From the IMG/VR virus record IMGVR_UViG_2913118216_000009: 27,914 nucleotides of DNA; one strand, 5' to 3'. Positions 15,417 through 26,574 of this stretch are shown in pieces (position 1 is the first letter of the stretch; each line of letters begins with the position of its first letter). Source of the DNA: a virus (taxonomy: Duplodnaviria; Heunggongvirae; Uroviricota; Caudoviricetes). Under the pieces are notes generated by a model that was not told the origin of the DNA, ran no database searches, and saw only the letters and a program-made list of their open reading frames with translations. Made by a program: the position numbers and the translations under genes.

Positions 15417-16454
15417 TCAACCCTCCACCGGTTCGGAGACTTTGCCGATTGTCACAGCGGATTCATCAATAGCCGCATACAGCTCCGGCACTTCCACCGC
15501 GTAACCTTCATTGCGCAGGTATTTGTTTTCGAACTGCTTACGATCTTCAACAAACTCCGCCTTACGCATACGGGTATTGCGCTGGGTGTAGATGTGCAGG
15601 TTAGAAAGCGGCGTAACCACCATGCGTTTACCCGGCATAAACGGCGGGATAATAGCCGGACGGCCAGCAATGGTGCTTCCCAGCATCTGCGCCGCGATTT
15701 TTTCAGTCGGACGGTCTGCTGCCTGATACAGTCGGTATTGTTCAGCTGCGACCAGATCGGCACCAACCAGAACAACCAGACGCGGGTCATTGCGGAACTG
15801 TGCCGGGATTTTGGCGTTAATCAGATCGGACGCCATTGCATCCAGTGATTTGTAATCCCCGGCCTCATCAAGCACCACGGCATCCGTCATAATCTGATTG
15901 CCGCCCAGCAGCGTTTTCATACGCTCATGCCAGCCAACGTTCACATCCTCGCCGTTCGGGTTAGTTTCCGGATCAGTGGTTTTCGCGCGACTTTTACCGT
16001 TAAAACCAATGCGCAACATATCCAGCGCAAAAGCCTGCGTGGTGAATGCCTGTACCAGGTTGTAAAACTCGTTTTCGTCCTTACCGGCGTTTGCCCAGAC
16101 AGAAAGCAGATCCCAGCGCAACGCGGCACAGCTGTCTGTTTCAACCAGGGAATAGTCATTACCGTCAACGCCTACCTGACGAATGAAACGGCCATTTTCG
16201 CTGCGGCCGGTATGCAGCACAGAGGAACCGACAGAGATCACCTGGCCACTCAGCTGGTCAACATCCAGACAGGTGATCATGTTCAGGAACTCGACGGACT
16301 CCAGCAACGCAAGACGCAGCGCATTTTCCTGTGGGTCATTCAGGGAAAAATATCGACTGGTATCACGCGCACCAAACTGCTGCGCCATCCCCGCCGAATA
16401 TTTATCCAGTAAATCCCGCGCACGATTATTAAGGTGCATAAAACTCCCTCGCAA
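15417..16454 (-). CDS. Major capsid protein, P2 gpN family
   Basis: 345-aa ORF between scaffold and small terminase genes; size and order as in P2; the N-terminus may start a few codons into the ORF. Confidence 0.8.
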   Translation of the reverse strand: MRGSFMHLNNRARDLLDKYSAGMAQQFGARDTSRYFSLNDPQENALRLALLESVEFLNMITCLDVDQLSGQVISVGSSVLHTGRSENGRFIRQVGVDGNDYSLVETDSCAALRWDLLSVWANAGKDENEFYNLVQAFTTQAFALDMLRIGFNGKSRAKTTDPETNPNGEDVNVGWHERMKTLLGGNQIMTDAVVLDEAGDYKSLDAMASDLINAKIPAQFRNDPRLVVLVGADLVAAEQYRLYQAADRPTEKIAAQMLGSTIAGRPAIIPPFMPGKRMVVTPLSNLHIYTQRNTRMRKAEFVEDRKQFENKYLRNEGYAVEVPELYAAIDESAVTIGKVSEPVEG

Positions 16455-17466: not shown

Positions 17467-19242
17467 ATGGCTAAATACTCTGAAGAATTAAAAGGCGTTG
17501 TTCGCGCACTTTATCTGCGCCGCTATACGCCAAAGGAAATCGCATCTGAATTAAATCTGCCGAATGCGCGGATCGTTTACTACTGGGCGGAGAAATACAG
17601 CTGGGCGGATTTGCTCAGTTTTGAAAGCACAGAGGAAGCAATTGAACGCCGTTACCAGCTGCTGGCCAGCCGCGATAACAAAACCGATCTCGACCTGAAA
17701 GAAATGGACATGCTCATTGCTCATGCCACGAAACTGCGTGCGCAGAGTAATAAACACAAAGAGAAAATGGCCAGCGGTCAGAGTTCCGGGCAAGCAGCTG
17801 CGCGGGACAACAATGACAACGAACCACGCAGCAAACGGAAATACAAGAAAAACGATATTACGTCGCTGACGCAGGAGGACTTTGACGCATGGGCTGAAGA
17901 ACATCTTTTTGAATATCAGAAACACCTGCGCAATAACATTGGCCAGCTTGTCAGGAACATCCTGAAAAGCCGCCAGATCGGTGCGACCTGGTATTTTGCG
18001 TTTGAAGCGTTTGAAAACGCGGTGATGACCGGCGATCCGCAAATCTTTCTGTCAGCGTCAAAGGCACAGGCTGAAGTGTTCCGGTCTTACATCGTGAATA
18101 TTGCAGAGCAGTATTTCGGTATTACGCTAACCGGCAACCCGATCCGCTTAAGCAACGGCGCAGAACTGCGTTTTCTCTCCACCAACAAAAACACTGCCCA
18201 GTCCTACAGTGGCCACCTGTACTGTGACGAATATTTCTGGGTGCCAAACTTTGCAAAACTTAACGAAGTGGCCAGCGCAATGGCCACACATGACAAGTGG
18301 CGCACCACCTATTTTTCAACGCCATCGGCAAAAACGCACCAGGCTTACCCGTTCTGGACGGGCGATGAGTGGAAACAGGGCAGTAAAAAACGTGCGGCCA
18401 TTAAGTTTCCGTCCTTTAACGAAATGCGTGACGGCGGGCGACTCTGCCCGGATGGGCAATGGCGCTACGTCATTACGATGGGAGATGCCATTGCGGGCGG
18501 TTTCAACCTGGCGAACATCGAGAAACTTCGCAACCGCTACAACGACGCCACTTTTAACATGCTCTATATGTGCGTGTTCGTTGACAGCAAAGATTCCGTT
18601 TTCAGCTTTTCCGATCTGGAAGCCTGCGGTGTTGAAATCGACACCTGGCAGGATCACAACCCTGATGCAGCGCGGCCATTTGGTGACAGGCCGGTATGGG
18701 GTGGCTTTGACCCGGCTCGCAGCGGTGATTTGTCCTGTTTTGTCATCATCGCACCGCCGATACTCGCCGTGGAGAAATTCCGCGTTCTGAAGGTGATTTA
18801 CTGGAAAGGCATGAACTTCCGGTACCAGGCAAAACAGATCGAGCAATTGTTTAAAAAATACAACTTCACTTATCTGGGTGTGGACGTTACCGGCATTGGC
18901 CAGGGTGTTTTTGACAACATTCAGCATTTTGCCATGCGCGTGGCCGTCCCTATTCGTTACGACCTTAACACCAAAAATCAACTGGTGCTGAAAGCGGTGG
19001 ACGTGGTGGAAAGCCAACGTATTGAGTGGGATAAAAACCTGAAAGAGATCGCTGCCAGCTTTATGTCTGTGCGCCGAACCACCACACAAAGCGGCAACGC
19101 CATGACGTTTGTCGCTGACCGCAGCCAGGATACTGGCCACGCGGAGGCGTTCTGGGCGATTACCCACGGTCTGCATAACGAACCCCTTAACTATGAAAAC
19201 AAACCTAAATCCCGCTGGGGTGTAAGGAAAGAGGCTGCATGA
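17467..19242 (+). CDS. Terminase large (ATPase) subunit, P2 gpP-like
   Basis: 591-aa ORF, size of P2 gpP; directly followed by the portal gene with an ATGA overlap; divergent from the O-N-M-L operon as in P2. Confidence 0.8.
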   Translation: MAKYSEELKGVVRALYLRRYTPKEIASELNLPNARIVYYWAEKYSWADLLSFESTEEAIERRYQLLASRDNKTDLDLKEMDMLIAHATKLRAQSNKHKEKMASGQSSGQAAARDNNDNEPRSKRKYKKNDITSLTQEDFDAWAEEHLFEYQKHLRNNIGQLVRNILKSRQIGATWYFAFEAFENAVMTGDPQIFLSASKAQAEVFRSYIVNIAEQYFGITLTGNPIRLSNGAELRFLSTNKNTAQSYSGHLYCDEYFWVPNFAKLNEVASAMATHDKWRTTYFSTPSAKTHQAYPFWTGDEWKQGSKKRAAIKFPSFNEMRDGGRLCPDGQWRYVITMGDAIAGGFNLANIEKLRNRYNDATFNMLYMCVFVDSKDSVFSFSDLEACGVEIDTWQDHNPDAARPFGDRPVWGGFDPARSGDLSCFVIIAPPILAVEKFRVLKVIYWKGMNFRYQAKQIEQLFKKYNFTYLGVDVTGIGQGVFDNIQHFAMRVAVPIRYDLNTKNQLVLKAVDVVESQRIEWDKNLKEIAASFMSVRRTTTQSGNAMTFVADRSQDTGHAEAFWAITHGLHNEPLNYENKPKSRWGVRKEAA

Positions 19243-20300
19243 GTAAAAAGAAACGCTTTGTTAAGCGCGACCAGCGCGGCGACAAATCAAAAAAGATGAG
19301 CATTATCACATTCGGCAAACCTGAACCGGTTCTGACTACCGGCACAGATTACCGTGATATCTGGTACGACAATGCCGCCGATCACTTCACCCAGCCGATT
19401 GACCGGCTGGCACTCGCACAGCTGATTAATCTTAACGGTCAGCACGGCGGCATCATTCACGCCCGCAAAAACATGATTGTTTCAGATTACTTGGGTGGCG
19501 GACTTATTCACGACCAGCTGGAAGCGGCAGCGTATGACTATATAACCTTTGGGGATATTGCGATTGCCAAAATTCGTAACGGCTGGGGAGACGTGATCGC
19601 ACTTGAACCCTTACCCGGTCTGTATATACGCCGCCGCAAAGTCAGAGATAACGCCCTGGATAAGCCCGGTGACTACGTAGTGTTACAGGAAGGGGAACCG
19701 CAGATATGGCCAGAAGAAGATATTATCTTTATCAAAATGTATGACCCGCAACAGCATATCTACGGACTGCCGGACTACATCGGCGGTGTGCATTCCGCGT
19801 TACTTAACAGTGAAGCGGTCATTTTCCGACGCCGCTACTACCACAACGGTGCACACACAGGCGGAATTCTTTATACCCGCGATCCCAGCATGACGGACGA
19901 AATGGAGGAAGAAATTGAACAGCAGCTGCGTGACAGCAAAGGGATCGGGAACTTCTCCACCATCCTTGTAAACATTCCCGGCGGAGACGGCGACGCCATC
20001 AAGTTCATTGAAATGGGTGATATTTCTGCTAAGGATGAATTTGCCAACATCAAGAACATCAGCGCACAGGACATTCTGAACGCGCACCGTTTCCCTGCCG
20101 GCCTCGCCGGTATTGTCCCGCAGAATACTGCCGGACTGGGGGATGTTGAAAAGGCTGAACGCATTTATAAGAAAAGCGAAATTGCGCCCATCCAGCGCCG
20201 TTTCATGCTGGCCGTTAACAACGATCCCGAAATACCGGAAAGGTTGCACCTAAACTTTGATTTAAGTTACATAGAATCAATAGATAAAGGTGCGGCATGA
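19239..20300 (+). CDS. Portal protein, P2 gpQ-like
   Basis: 353-aa ORF coupled to the terminase large subunit gene; size and order as in P2. Confidence 0.8.
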   Translation: MSKKKRFVKRDQRGDKSKKMSIITFGKPEPVLTTGTDYRDIWYDNAADHFTQPIDRLALAQLINLNGQHGGIIHARKNMIVSDYLGGGLIHDQLEAAAYDYITFGDIAIAKIRNGWGDVIALEPLPGLYIRRRKVRDNALDKPGDYVVLQEGEPQIWPEEDIIFIKMYDPQQHIYGLPDYIGGVHSALLNSEAVIFRRRYYHNGAHTGGILYTRDPSMTDEMEEEIEQQLRDSKGIGNFSTILVNIPGGDGDAIKFIEMGDISAKDEFANIKNISAQDILNAHRFPAGLAGIVPQNTAGLGDVEKAERIYKKSEIAPIQRRFMLAVNNDPEIPERLHLNFDLSYIESIDKGAA

Positions 20301-20620
20301 TGCGAAACTGGCTAAAATCCATGCTTCATTTAACAGCTGGAGCATGGAATATGCGAGTTCTGAAAATCGAATGCCCGGAATGCGGCTCAAAGGCTGTTAT
20401 TCGTAAAACGAACAGGAAGCATCGGCAAATTGCAGATATTTACTGCGCCTGTTCAGATGTTGAATGTGGCCACACATTTGTTATGAATCTGACATTTTCC
20501 CACACTCTCAGCCCCAGCGCTAAAACGGGTGATGCGGTGGTGCAAAAAATACTGAGTGCACTTTCTCCCGCTCAGCGCCAGGTAGCATTAGATTTACTGA
20601 AAGTGACTCCCGCTGCCTAA
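20297..20620 (+). CDS. Ogr/Delta-family zinc-finger late transcription activator (start may be the internal Met near 20351)
   Basis: CPECGSKAVIRKTNRKHRQIADIYCACSDVECGHTF has the same cysteine spacing and Y..C....C..TF pattern as P2 Ogr as I recall it. Confidence 0.65.
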   Translation: MMRNWLKSMLHLTAGAWNMRVLKIECPECGSKAVIRKTNRKHRQIADIYCACSDVECGHTFVMNLTFSHTLSPSAKTGDAVVQKILSALSPAQRQVALDLLKVTPAA

Positions 20621-20800
20621 AAAGCCCCCAGAATGAGGGCTTTTCCCTTCCTTTCTAACCATTTTGTGAACCTCTTCCGCAAGTTCTCCAATCCAGGCCA
20701 AAGCGATTGTTTTTTCTCTCTGGTTACTTTCGTAATCATGGGCAATTTTAGCTAATAACTCAATGCGTTCCAGCTGTGCCGACGCCTCCAAAAGATCCAT
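20594..20800 (-). CDS. Small hypothetical protein downstream of gene A, possibly SOS-regulated (antirepressor-like role is speculative)
   Basis: 68-aa ORF with a GGGGG Shine-Dalgarno before the ATG; preceded by a LexA-box-like palindrome; its 3' end runs through the terminator hairpin, so the true extent is uncertain. Confidence 0.3.
   Translation of the reverse strand: MDLLEASAQLERIELLAKIAHDYESNQREKTIALAWIGELAEEVHKMVRKEGKSPHSGGFLGSGSHFQ
20621..20650. terminator. Rho-independent terminator (possibly bidirectional)
   Basis: Stem AAAGCCC / GGGCTTT with a 9-nt loop directly after the stop codon of the Ogr-like gene, followed by a T-rich tract; the complementary strand also ends in a T-run. Confidence 0.5.
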
Positions 20801-20822
20801 TTAGCCCCCACAAGCAATAGTG

Positions 20823-20840
20823 ACTGGATAAGTATCCAGT
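20823..20840. promoter_or_regulatory. LexA-box-like palindrome (CTG-N10-CAG)
   Basis: ACTGGATAAGTATCCAGT: 8-bp inverted arms with an AT-rich centre, overlapping a TATACT -10-like hexamer on the minus strand about 25 bp upstream of the small ORF. Confidence 0.35.
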
Positions 20841-20925
20841 ATACCGTACACCGTAAAGCACGAATAGTGAAATTTAATTTCCTTCCATCTACTGAGAAAT
20901 GCATGCATTTCACATATTTACCCTG

Positions 20926-22947
20926 CTAGACCCACCCCGGCCATAACTCGTTTAATGGCTCGTTTTGAATCTCTTTAAGCCACCCATTACGGTAAACCAG
21001 TCCCCCTTGGCCAAACATCAAACCACTACCCCGTAGGAGAATGGCTATTTCTTCATTAGAACCGTTAAAACCCCGACTGCATAATTCCAGTTTTAACCGT
21101 CTGAGGATTCCCCCCTCCGTACAGTTATTGACAGAACTCCAAGGGGCGGCGTTGCCGCCAGAAACCCCCGCCTCCGCTGGCGCTTCGGCCAACTTCGCAA
21201 CCTTTTGCCACTTAACCAGACGGGTGCAAACTTCCGAATCAGGAACCAAAGGAGAATAAACCCCCTGTACGCGCTGCACGTCCTCTGCGTACTCGTTGCC
21301 CTGTTCCGTAATTTCATAGGCCAGACGAACAACCAGATCACGGCGGGCAATCAGTGCGCCACCCTGTGCTTGGGTGTATGCAGCCCAATCGCCAACATCA
21401 GCAGCGGCCAGAACCGCATCCATTCTGCGATCTGTCAGCACCAGATCCCGCAACCGACGCAGCTCACGCCAGACGGTTACCGGCGCACCACCAATCTGCT
21501 GAAACTGACGAATGCGCCAGCGTGAAGCCCATGCAGAAACGGACTTAGCCATATCACGCAGGTTTTCGCCGGTTTCTTCGTCCTGCTCACCATCCAACGC
21601 AAAACCATCAATATTTTTTGAAATGTATTTCGCGATGTAGCCCGTGGCTGAACCTTTGTCGGGATCGATAGCTTCAACGTGAAAACGTGCCTTAAGCGCC
21701 TTTTCAGATTGCAGTTCCTCAGAATCGGTAATTCTGGCGTGATAGCAAAGAATATCGCGTACCGTGTCCACGTCCTGCAGACGCATAAAAAGCAACATAT
21801 GCCAGTGCGGTGTCCCGTCATGGTGTGGCTCAACAACCCGAAACCCAAATACATGAATACCCGCACGCGAGATCGCTGCGCGTGCTTTTGCCCATACGCC
21901 GCATAAATAGCGCTGGGTATCCTGCGGTGTACATCCATCCCATTGCGATACAAAGCCACCTTTGCTGTGCACTGCGTGGAAACGTGATGGCGCGGTGATG
22001 GTGTAAAACTCACCGGCCAGCCCTTCTTCATTGGCCATATCTTCAAACCCTCGCATTCTTACCATTAGTTCACATCGACGGATCGCCGGATTTGCAACGC
22101 TGCGGTGCACCATGCTGTCCAGTGCAATGCGCAGCCCCTCATCATTCAGCAGATCAAACTTTTTAAAGAACTCCAGATTCCGCTTTTTCTGGTCTATCCA
22201 TTCGTCCAGTGTTTTGCGGGATACATAAGCGCTGGCCGCTTTTTGTACCTGTCCCACCGCGATGGCCATATGTTCGCGCTGCATATCACGCGCACGTTTA
22301 AGACGTAGGTACCACCATTCCGGCGCCATCATGCGCAGTATCCCGGATTCCGCCTTACGCATTTCCAGTTGACCTTCATTGGCCTCATGTTCAGCCCAGT
22401 ACGGCGGCTGGTTATTCAGCATCAGGCAACCCGCGCAAAGATGGCGGTATGATTCCAAGGTGCGGCGATGCAGCTCTCTGGCGTCGTCAGTGCCGGAGTC
22501 AAACTGTTCGGTGAAGTCATAAAGTGACTGGGAAATCCAACCAGATACCTGGCCAGCCAGTTTTTTAAGATCAGGACGGTCTAGTGACGGCAAGCGCTCC
22601 AGCGACTTACCAAAAGGAAGATCGGCAGCGTCAGCGGCCAGCGAGTAACGCGCAGCCACTTTGCGCAGACGTGGCAATACACTCCCGCCGATAGTCTGGC
22701 GCAGGAATGTATTGGCACAGCGACGCCCGTCACGACCAGCAAACAGCTTTTCGTAACGACGGCCAAAATACCCGGCTAACCAGTCGGGTATCTCATGAAG
22801 GTACCGGGCTCTCCATTCATAATCCTGCGGATTTACAGCCCACAAACGGCGTTCTGTGATTGTCGCGTCTGCCGGTATGCAAGATGCGAAAGTTTCACGC
22901 CGCCACGTATCGACAGCATAGAAGTGTTCCTTTATAGCCAACATCAT
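20926..22947 (-). CDS. Replication initiation endonuclease, P2/186 gpA family (rolling-circle initiator)
   Basis: 673-aa ORF; contains ...HVEAIDPDKGSATGYIAKYISKNIDG... resembling the active-site tyrosine region of GPA-type proteins; last large gene of the early operon. Confidence 0.8.
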   Translation of the reverse strand: MMLAIKEHFYAVDTWRRETFASCIPADATITERRLWAVNPQDYEWRARYLHEIPDWLAGYFGRRYEKLFAGRDGRRCANTFLRQTIGGSVLPRLRKVAARYSLAADAADLPFGKSLERLPSLDRPDLKKLAGQVSGWISQSLYDFTEQFDSGTDDARELHRRTLESYRHLCAGCLMLNNQPPYWAEHEANEGQLEMRKAESGILRMMAPEWWYLRLKRARDMQREHMAIAVGQVQKAASAYVSRKTLDEWIDQKKRNLEFFKKFDLLNDEGLRIALDSMVHRSVANPAIRRCELMVRMRGFEDMANEEGLAGEFYTITAPSRFHAVHSKGGFVSQWDGCTPQDTQRYLCGVWAKARAAISRAGIHVFGFRVVEPHHDGTPHWHMLLFMRLQDVDTVRDILCYHARITDSEELQSEKALKARFHVEAIDPDKGSATGYIAKYISKNIDGFALDGEQDEETGENLRDMAKSVSAWASRWRIRQFQQIGGAPVTVWRELRRLRDLVLTDRRMDAVLAAADVGDWAAYTQAQGGALIARRDLVVRLAYEITEQGNEYAEDVQRVQGVYSPLVPDSEVCTRLVKWQKVAKLAEAPAEAGVSGGNAAPWSSVNNCTEGGILRRLKLELCSRGFNGSNEEIAILLRGSGLMFGQGGLVYRNGWLKEIQNEPLNELWPGWV

Positions 22948-24536: not shown

Positions 24537-25040
24537 TCATATCAGGCCGGTGGCATTGATTGTGACCAGCGCTACCGCAGCGGCCAGGACGGGCGTAGAG
24601 TGAAAACGACTTTCCACGGTATAAGCCAGCACGGATAAGCTACGAATTGCATCGCGGGCGCGATCCAGAATTTGAGTACGACGAGCGGCAGTCATATGGC
24701 AAGTTGATACGGCTTCCCCAGCAATCGCCCCCACGCACGCAGTGGCGCTAAGAGCACACAGTTGCATGTTGCCTTCAGTGGCATTATTCACAGGCACGGA
24801 TGGCAGGCAGTTAATTTGGCTTAACATCCCATCCAGTAAACGTGCATCTTCGGTGTAATCCGTAATGGATATAAGCTCATCGCACGTTAAACGGTGCGGT
24901 TGCGCTGGATTTAGTTTGTTGCGCAGGATCTGCGGCCTTATACCAACGGCAACAGCCACATCTTCAAGATTGTGCTCAATTGCAAATGCTCGGCAAGCCG
25001 CATCAAATCGCGCATGTTTAGAGATCTGGTAATCAAACAT
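24537..25040 (-). CDS. CII-like lysogeny establishment regulator (phage 186 CII type)
   Basis: 167-aa ORF, second gene of the leftward operon diverging from the repressor gene; size and position match 186 CII. Confidence 0.55.
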   Translation of the reverse strand: MFDYQISKHARFDAACRAFAIEHNLEDVAVAVGIRPQILRNKLNPAQPHRLTCDELISITDYTEDARLLDGMLSQINCLPSVPVNNATEGNMQLCALSATACVGAIAGEAVSTCHMTAARRTQILDRARDAIRSLSVLAYTVESRFHSTPVLAAAVALVTINATGLI

Positions 25041-25070: not shown

Positions 25071-25352
25071 TTACGCGTTAAGTGAAATATCACATTCACT
25101 TAAAGCCTGAATGGTTAGCGCGGCCATGTTGACCTCAACCAGGCCTTTCTTCTGCTTACCCTTAGGTTTAATGGGCAATTTCCCGTATTCGATCAGATTT
25201 CTGGCAGTTTCTTTGTTTGTACCAGTACGACGGCAATATTCGTCTAAAGGCAGGTAAGGTTCCGGTATGATGATTGTAATGCTCGGACGCATAAGGCAAA
25301 CTCCATTAGTCAACCTGTACGGTAATACAGGGCTGTAACTGTCAATATTCAC
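25071..25352 (-). CDS. Apl/Cox-like small DNA-binding protein (excisionase / switch regulator); probable start at internal ATG near 25292
   Basis: First gene of the operon divergent from the repressor; about 73 aa from the internal Met; basic helix-turn-helix-like segment (TGTNKETARNLIEYGKL). Confidence 0.5.
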   Translation of the reverse strand: MNIDSYSPVLPYRLTNGVCLMRPSITIIIPEPYLPLDEYCRRTGTNKETARNLIEYGKLPIKPKGKQKKGLVEVNMAALTIQALSECDISLNA

Positions 25353-25411: not shown

Positions 25412-25990
25412 GTGAAGCTACAAATTGAATTTTCTCATGGCGGATCAGAAGTCTTGGACAGAGTCATCCAGGCGTATGGTTTCAACACAAAATTAGCCCT
25501 GGCCGAACATCTTGATATAGCAAGTAGCAGCCTGGCTAATCGCTACAAGAGGGATTTTTTTCCAGCAGATATCGTTGTTAGATGCATGGCTGAAACGGGA
25601 GCAACTCTGGAATGGCTTGCGACTGGGCAAGGAAGAAAGTTTAACGATGACGAATTAGACATCATGAAACTGCCGCGTAAGAAGATTGTGGACGGAAAAC
25701 TCTATGATTCCGGTTTGCTAATGCTCGATAAGGTTACTTTTTTACCTGGTAAGCCTTTACCACAGAATCCAATCTGTGTGATTGACAACGCAATGCAGTA
25801 CATTGTTGATCAACACTTTCCCGAAGTTTACGACGATGATTGGTTAGTTGAAATTGAAGGAAAAACAAGTGTGAGAACCCTTACGCGCATCCCCGTAGGC
25901 AAAGTTCGAGTGAGTGGCGTTGGGATGGCATTTGATTGCGCTATCGAAGATATAAAAATTTTAGGTCGTATTATCTTAACTATAAAATAA
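25412..25990 (+). CDS. Immunity repressor, phage 186 CI type
   Basis: 192-aa ORF (GTG start with AAGGAAAAA Shine-Dalgarno), same length as 186 CI as I recall it; transcribed towards the integrase gene and divergent from the Apl/CII operon; no LexA/S24-type cleavage motif seen. Confidence 0.6.
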   Translation: MKLQIEFSHGGSEVLDRVIQAYGFNTKLALAEHLDIASSSLANRYKRDFFPADIVVRCMAETGATLEWLATGQGRKFNDDELDIMKLPRKKIVDGKLYDSGLLMLDKVTFLPGKPLPQNPICVIDNAMQYIVDQHFPEVYDDDWLVEIEGKTSVRTLTRIPVGKVRVSGVGMAFDCAIEDIKILGRIILTIK

Positions 25991-26004
25991 TAAGGAAAAT
26001 TATA

Positions 26005-26574
26005 ATGATAGATTACAAGACTGCATCTAAAGACCAATTAAAAGTAGAAATGAAACGATTGTCTGCCGCTGTTTCAGATACGCCATTTGGTACAAAAAAA
26101 GAATTTTTTCATCTTCCCGAAGTTTTAAACACCGGCGAGGAACCGCTTGGCATAGTAAGCGGTATGATGGATGGCAACACCTGGTTAATAACTTTAACTA
26201 ACCAACGCGTTATCTTCCTCGATAAAGGGATGATATTTGGTGTTAAGCAGGTCGATATTAGCCTTCGTAACATTGTAAGCGTTGGCGGAAAGACTGGACT
26301 GATATTTGGTGAGATAATGATTTCAACAAGCGGACAGAATTACACCATAAAAAACGTTATAAAATCCTCCGTAATTCCTTTTACCAACCTTGTTAATGAG
26401 ACAAGGAATAGTCTGGACAAGCCACAAGTTATCACCGCTCCTACAAGCTCCAACGAAAAATCTTCATTTGATGATGTCATGGATAAAATTGAACGTTTGG
26501 CTGAAATGAAAGCAGAAGGCATTCTTACTGAAGAAGAATTTCAGCAGCAAAAACAACGCATTTTAAACAGCTAA
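26005..26574 (+). CDS. PH-domain plus SHOCT-domain protein (moron between repressor and integrase)
   Basis: ATG at about 26005 with AAGGAAAA Shine-Dalgarno; central region resembles bacterial PH (YdbS/YokE-like) domains; C-terminus IERLAEMKAEGILTEEEFQQQKQRIL matches the SHOCT motif; strongly AT-rich. Confidence 0.6.
   Translation: MIDYKTASKDQLKVEMKRLSAAVSDTPFGTKKEFFHLPEVLNTGEEPLGIVSGMMDGNTWLITLTNQRVIFLDKGMIFGVKQVDISLRNIVSVGGKTGLIFGEIMISTSGQNYTIKNVIKSSVIPFTNLVNETRNSLDKPQVITAPTSSNEKSSFDDVMDKIERLAEMKAEGILTEEEFQQQKQRILNS

Follow-up and report, generated by a model that had tools for sequence, protein, structure and literature searches.

The SOS operon of phage 186 is composed of the promoter p95, a LexA box and tum, which encodes a protein of 146 aa. 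In the 186 record, p95 has TTCACA as -35 and TACTGT as -10 element, with a LexA site overlapping the -10, and is located 19 nt before tum, downstream of the replication gene A. Tum is a LexA-controlled antirepressor that binds CI and keeps it from its operators, and its second half is DinI-like (PMC3121763). A P2-like E. coli prophage can no longer be induced by mitomycin C when tum is deleted or lexA is made non-cleavable (PMC12055606). The tum gene of prophage DuoHS (E. coli HS) has been tested experimentally. Lemire et al. described Tum as a fusion between an antirepressor and DinI whose parts are split in PSP3 and Fels-2, where the upstream gene carries the antirepressor activity (PMC3121763). 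In the PSP3 record, tumA encodes a 60 aa protein annotated as 'UV induction of prophage' and tumB is DinI-like. A combination of a non-cleavable repressor, a small trans-acting antirepressor and a LexA-repressed promoter is also found with GfoA, GftA and GfhA of the Gifsy prophages and with AntC of N15 (PMC3121763).

The DNA analysed here, a stretch of 27,914 nucleotides (IMG/VR record IMGVR_UViG_2913118216_000009, hereafter the window), is a P2/186-like (Peduoviridae) prophage. Its closest sequenced relatives are E. coli prophages with 82-88% identity, present in 21 of 5,426 complete genomes. Further close relatives are a Salmonella phage contig and the Quadragintavirus phages ESSI2_ev040, ev015 and ev129. 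The early operon is carried by the minus strand. It starts with an Apl/Cox-like gene (25071-25352) followed by a CII gene (CP76, 24537-25040), several small genes and the 673 aa replication gene A (20926-22947), which is annotated as a replication endonuclease and matches the Pfam profile Phage_GPA. The operon ends with an ORF of 68 aa (20594-20800) separated by 125 nt from the end of gene A, which lies upstream. Two groups of genes occupy the plus strand. The first includes a 186-type CI gene (25412-25990), a bPH/SHOCT gene and the integrase, and the second (17467-20620) the terminase, the portal and an Ogr/Delta zinc-finger gene, converging on the 68-aa ORF. Both this ORF and the prophage are intact. 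A preliminary description made from the sequence alone had noted that the ORF occupies the place of the antirepressor gene tum beyond the replication gene. The 186 map agrees, since tum also follows gene A directly. The window differs from 186 in that there is no orf97-like second gene and in that the ORF is placed tail-to-tail with the ogr-like gene.

Several features of this organization vary among relatives. A gene with bPH_3 and SHOCT domains (25936-26574) is located on the lysogenic strand between CI and the integrase. It is present in two relatives (L080 and L081), missing from two others (L079 and L082), and phage 186 has no gene at this place; it is a candidate accessory or lysogenic-conversion gene. 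Some carriers of an identical 68-aa protein (L079 and L082) include a D12-class DNA methyltransferase gene before gene A, which the window does not carry. The set of small early genes between the DUF2732 gene and gene A also differs between these two loci and the window. The early region is mosaic. The Ogr/Delta zinc-finger gene (20297-20620) comes after the portal gene, within the terminase-portal operon, and this gene order leaves no intergenic room at the position of cos in P2 and 186. A search of the whole window for the 186 cos junction and for the cos 19-mers of P2 and 186 gave no credible match. Depending on the record, the ogr-like ORF is 107 or 89 aa long.

The 68-aa ORF on the minus strand (20800-20594) is preceded by a G-rich Shine-Dalgarno sequence, as first reported from the sequence. 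It reads GGGGG (20809-20805, minus strand) and is located 4 nt before the ATG; relatives carry GGGAGG or GTGGGG. Forty-two distinct alleles of 68 codons were compared over the 58 codons outside the overlap with the ogr-like gene. The first, second and third codon positions are variable at 38, 31 and 54 of these 58 codons, respectively, and the median dN/dS relative to the window allele is 0.21. The ORF is therefore a real gene under purifying selection. No Pfam or NCBIfam model matches the protein, and the 63 database clusters are all named 'hypothetical'.

Sequence comparison relates this protein to the N-terminal half of 186 Tum. It matches three PHROG families, phrog_698 (E 9.5e-22), phrog_8554 and phrog_1993, which are also those matched by the first 70 residues of Tum. 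A direct BLASTP comparison shows 34% identity over 32 aa (Tum residues 11-42, E 2e-6). With hhalign the score is 86.6% using a narrow profile and rises to 97.3% (E 2.3e-11, Tum residues 4-45) with a profile of 59 sequences. A profile search of 1.8 billion representatives returned 78 relatives, all of them short (36-123 aa). The 146-aa Tum was not among the sequences retrieved from the whole library up to an E value of 0.001. The link to Tum was consequently made through the PHROG cross-matches, hhalign and a bridging sequence, P0137, which is retrieved by the family profile and is 65% identical to Tum residues 1-57. In addition, an unannotated ORF of Yersinia phage vB_YenM_324 is matched by both the 68-aa protein and the Tum N-terminal half. 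The homology covers the N-terminal ~45 residues of Tum, and the similarity is limited to about 40 residues at ~30% identity. The 68-aa protein stands alone and is a homologue of Tum's N-terminal (antirepressor) half.

The parallel with tum drawn in the preliminary description thus holds for the N-terminal half, and not for the DinI-like part, a situation like that of PSP3 TumA. The C-terminal half of Tum is identified as DinI-like by an NCBIfam match. When it was used together with DinI in tblastn searches, the window and about 80 related loci contained no DinI-like sequence, the sole match being 186 itself. The window protein therefore differs from Tum by the absence of this half as well as of internal-start products. 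PSP3 TumA, like the window protein, is a short stand-alone protein corresponding to the 5' half of tum; its gene lies after gene A, with a LexA box in front. PSP3 differs in that a separate DinI-like tumB gene is located just downstream. At the sequence level TumA and the window protein have marginal similarity (no BLASTP match, hhalign 78.5%), and the latter resembles the 186 Tum N-terminal half more closely. In the Gifsy operons, unlike in the window, a dinI homologue comes before the antirepressor gene. The Gifsy and N15 antirepressors share the regulatory logic proposed here; the phage groups and the repressor families differ. On these comparisons the protein would be a TumA-type stand-alone antirepressor devoid of a DinI partner. 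The AlphaFold2 model (mean pLDDT 84.5) predicts a two-helix hairpin across residues 3-52, with helices at residues 3-20 and 27-52 (pLDDT > 90) and a disordered tail. A PDB sequence search and a Foldseek search with this model returned generic helical hairpins alone (E >= 0.57).

The repressor of the prophage is consistent with such a role. The CI gene (25412-25990, plus strand) encodes 192 aa and includes the Pfam domains Phage_CI_repr (2.1e-25) and Phage_CI_C (1.2e-30). The same search revealed neither Peptidase_S24 nor any other family, in agreement with the initial observation of a CI-like repressor without a self-cleavage motif. The partner repressors of 186 and of the window are thus members of the same two-domain family without a peptidase domain, at only 40% identity (over 178 aa). 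Since CI has no S24 peptidase domain, RecA-stimulated self-cleavage is not expected and an antirepressor would be needed for SOS induction. Prophages with a CI of just 76% identity can carry the identical 68-aa protein, and the differences between these CI variants are concentrated in the N-terminal DNA-binding part. It is tempting to speculate that the 68-aa protein contacts a conserved surface of CI, its presumed target.

Another possible reading is that the 68-aa protein is SOS-controlled without being an antirepressor, and acts in the modulation of RecA or of the SOS response, in phage exclusion or on the host. Its function is deduced from a homology of about 40 residues, the three PHROG families that it matches are all labelled 'unknown function', and the structural neighbours of its predicted fold, a generic helical hairpin, are uninformative. 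However, the half of Tum that it matches is the half with antirepressor activity in PSP3 (PMC3121763), and the DinI-like half is the one that is absent. Moreover, a repressor without a self-cleavage domain needs an antirepressor for SOS induction, and the matrix scan described below identified no other good LexA site in the window. This alternative thus appears very improbable, and an antirepressor remains the preferred assignment.

The promoter region of the gene includes a putative LexA (SOS) box (20822-20841, minus strand), which reads TACTGGATACTTATCCAGTC. Its core ACTGGATAAGTATCCAGT (20823-20840) was noted from the sequence as a near-perfect palindrome of the form CTG-N10-CAG with an AT-rich centre. 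The palindrome is in fact exact, with two fully complementary arms of 8 nt and a 2-nt centre. It has the form of LexA operators of Gammaproteobacteria, which are palindromes of 16-20 bp (consensus TACTGTATATATATACAGTA). The deviation from this consensus that had been pointed out, CTGG in place of CTGT, occurs in both half-sites, CTGG and CCAG replacing CTGT and ACAG, so that the fourth position of each half is G/C and not T/A. The bare CTG-N10-CAG pattern is uninformative, with 24 matches in the window, and the site was therefore scored with a LexA weight matrix, as the preliminary description had proposed. The matrix is symmetric and relies on 27 E. coli boxes known from the literature, with no database source; these training sites score from 12.3 to 26.9 bits with a median of 20.3. 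With 19.6 bits, close to this median, GACTGGATAAGTATCCAGTA (20822-20841) is the best site of the window, the next one reaching 14.5 bits. Two hundred shuffled versions of the window gave best sites with a mean of 11.1 and a maximum of 17.9 bits, all below the window box. Functional E. coli SOS boxes with CTGG and CCAG half-sites exist at ruvAB and cho (ydjQ). Their sequences, also known from the literature, have the same A/T-rich centre and similar scores with this matrix (20.1 and 20.3 bits). They differ from the window site in that they control chromosomal repair genes, whereas the window site, derived from a canonical CTGT...ACAG box, belongs to a gene of a prophage.

The second best site of the matrix scan (16392-16411, 14.5 bits) was rejected as it lies inside a coding region and one of its halves has no CTG. 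The third (25313-25332, 11.9 bits) is a palindrome, CCTGTATTACCGTACAGG, with a CTGT-N8-ACAG core that has a TTGACA hexamer on one side and the apl-like start on the other. L079 and L082 have conserved it. Matrix scores of 10-11.5 bits were also obtained for this palindrome, below that of the weakest training site (12.3 bits). It is probably not the CI operator, because these two relatives differ from the window in the remainder of the operator region and their CI is no more than 76% identical. A weak LexA site, an Apl site and a 5'-UTR hairpin are all conceivable.

Conservation of the box was examined in related loci. A further 71 loci encoding a relative of the 68-aa protein were collected, and sufficient upstream sequence was available for 75 loci. 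They come from Escherichia, Salmonella, Citrobacter, Enterobacter, Kluyvera, Buttiauxella, Pectobacterium, Erwinia and viral contigs. For 74 of these 75 loci, the highest-scoring matrix site within 200 nt upstream of the start codon is a box (18-29 bits) whose end is located 14-27 nt from the ATG, and this position is kept even where the small protein is just 35-55% identical. Six aligned relatives carry canonical boxes at the position of the window box, for example TACTGTATGTATATCCAGTT, TACTGTATACATATACAGTA and TACTGTATGTTTATACAGTT. The 58 distinct upstream sequences share the arrangement TTTCACA, 17 nt, TACTGT...ACAGT, followed by the Shine-Dalgarno sequence and the ATG, with TTTCAC(A) conserved in nearly all of them. 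This is the layout of 186 p95, with TTCACA, a spacing of 17-18 nt and TACTGT within a LexA box some 20 nt upstream of the start codon, and a p95-type arrangement also precedes tumA in PSP3. As this layout and its box are shared by the relatives, 186 and PSP3, the window site qualifies as a predicted LexA operator by descent as well as by score. The sole relative without a LexA box is L020 (IMGVR_UViG_2791354791_000011), where the left half is lost. Its sequence upstream of ...CATGTATATCCAGTT is unrelated to that of the other loci, which indicates that the left half-box and the promoter were replaced by a rearrangement or an insertion.

These data bear on the possibility that the palindrome is a chance match, the site of another protein or the terminator hairpin of gene A, with nothing to do with LexA. 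The frequency of CTG-N10-CAG in the window would be compatible with chance, as would the centre and the fourth half-site positions, which are off consensus. Against this, the 20-mer scores above every shuffle, and many genera have orthologous canonical boxes at a constant distance from the ORF. Nor is the palindrome a terminator, as its hairpin would have a loop of just 2 nt and lacks a T-run, and a search of Rfam with the region 20300-21200 gave no match. An origin unrelated to LexA is therefore extremely improbable, and the site is considered below as a predicted LexA operator.

The promoter of the window differs from that of most relatives. The -35-like hexamer is TTCACT (20866-20871, minus strand), where the relatives and 186 p95 have TTCACA. 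Between this hexamer and the box there is a 7-bp tandem duplication (CGGTGTA followed by CGGTATA, 20840-20853, minus strand), which moves the LexA box 7 bp further from the -35 than in 186. The duplication is present only in the window and its identical copies (viral contig L015 and the four independent assemblies L079-L082), and the CTGG left half-site is likewise restricted to this lineage. At the position of TACTGT, the left half-box of the relatives, the window has TACGGT (20848-20843, minus strand), a TAnnnT hexamer recreated by the duplication. It is located 17 nt after TTCACT by alignment and counted spacing, and the box starts 1 nt after it. A consensus promoter and terminator scan of 20500-21000 found nothing, and the assignment of the promoter relies on comparison with 186 p95 and the relatives. 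This comparison suggests a promoter composed of TTCACT, 17 nt and TACGGT, closely followed by the box, which would cover the expected start site. The preliminary description had pointed to another -10-like hexamer, TATACT (20838-20843, minus strand). Its overlap with the box is real (3 nt), and it is a better hexamer match than TACGGT. Its role as a -10 is nevertheless less likely, because the conserved -35 is 22 nt away and no usable alternative exists, the best -35 at a spacing of 16-18 nt having 2 of 6 matches when checked by hand. Between the end of gene A and this promoter there is also a perfect 16-nt palindrome, GAAATGCATGCATTTC (20896-20911). It is probably fortuitous, since the relatives have the non-palindromic GAAAGGCATTCATTTG.

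Such changes raise the question of whether the module has decayed or been re-tuned, the box and the Tum-like gene being real by descent and the promoter uncoupled from LexA or inactive, in a prophage that would be non-inducible or leaky. The restriction of the 7-bp insertion and of the left-half CTGG to one lineage would fit this explanation. The box of this lineage scores 19.2-19.6 bits, near the bottom of the family range (18.3-28.7 bits), which suggests weaker LexA binding, and TTCACT has one match fewer to the -35 consensus than TTCACA. As the duplication also breaks the ancestral overlap between the box and the -10, and as no promoter was found in the consensus scan, regulation in the window lineage could be leaky or impaired. 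However, TACGGT, recreated by the duplication, has a spacing of exactly 17 nt from the -35, the box continues to cover the expected start, and the ruvAB and cho boxes are functional with the same half-sites and comparable scores. Furthermore, several independent assemblies carry this promoter and ORF unchanged, and the pair is found beside two different immunity regions. This distribution, together with the intact ORF and prophage, argues for a maintained, working element. Decay or uncoupling is accordingly regarded as unlikely, and a functional LexA-controlled promoter is retained.

The 3' end of the gene presents a second particularity. A GC-rich hairpin, GCCCCCA-GAA-TGAGGGC (core 20624-20640), is detected by sequence and fold within 20619-20645, where it is flanked by an A-run and a T-run. 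It follows directly the ogr-like stop codon and lies inside codons 53-60 of the 68-aa ORF, and it looks like a bidirectional terminator. Of 37 distinct related contexts, 36 have a hairpin of the CCCCC-N5-GGGGG type before the stop of the ORF. Most relatives show the T-run on the ogr strand only, whereas in the window runs are present on both sides. The stop codon of the ORF (20594-20596) is about 20 nt beyond the T-run, and with runs on both sides of the hairpin, transcripts of the small gene may stop there without a stop codon. The 3' ends of the ogr-like gene and of the 68-aa ORF overlap by 27 nt (20594-20620), an overlap that is highly conserved among relatives.

The weakened CTGG/CCAG half-sites, the 7-bp displacement of the operator from the -10 to the start region and the hairpin, followed by UUUUU about 20 nt before the stop, might together mean that the SOS module has been re-tuned in the window lineage. 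If so, non-stop transcripts would lead to tmRNA tagging and degradation of the antirepressor, and induction would require sustained rather than transient SOS signalling. We consider this proposal to be quite improbable.

The preferred reading is that the locus is the SOS induction module of a 186-like (Peduoviridae) prophage, which we hold to be probable with good confidence. This had been suggested at the outset, and is now supported by a box orthologous to the LexA box of 186 p95, by the homology with the N-terminal half of Tum and by the type of CI. We infer LexA binding in vivo, the hexamer that serves as -10, antirepressor activity and its target. In the lysogen, host LexA would occupy the box at 20822-20841, which overlies or closely follows the core of a weak p95-homologous sigma-70 promoter, and silence the 68-aa gene. 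Following DNA damage, activated RecA would trigger LexA self-cleavage and the promoter would fire. The small two-helix protein would then be made and bind the presumably non-cleavable 186-type CI, which would no longer hold the lytic promoter. Transcription of the operon running from apl and cII (both genes being present in the window) to gene A would lead to prophage excision and growth.

The mechanism is already textbook knowledge for phage 186, and the gain is thus in annotation and comparative detail rather than in a new principle. What is new here is a previously unannotated gene similar to the N-terminal half of tum together with a lineage-specific rearrangement of its operator and promoter. 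The locus is very likely an ordinary DNA-damage switch that wakes a 186-like prophage. These results provide a probable function, that of an SOS-triggered antirepressor, for a family of 'hypothetical' prophage proteins of about 60-70 aa distributed across enterobacterial genera. They predict that this prophage and its relatives would be inducible by DNA damage via LexA and not by repressor cleavage. Inducibility of the LexA type would in turn bear on prophage mobilisation by antibiotics that trigger the SOS response.
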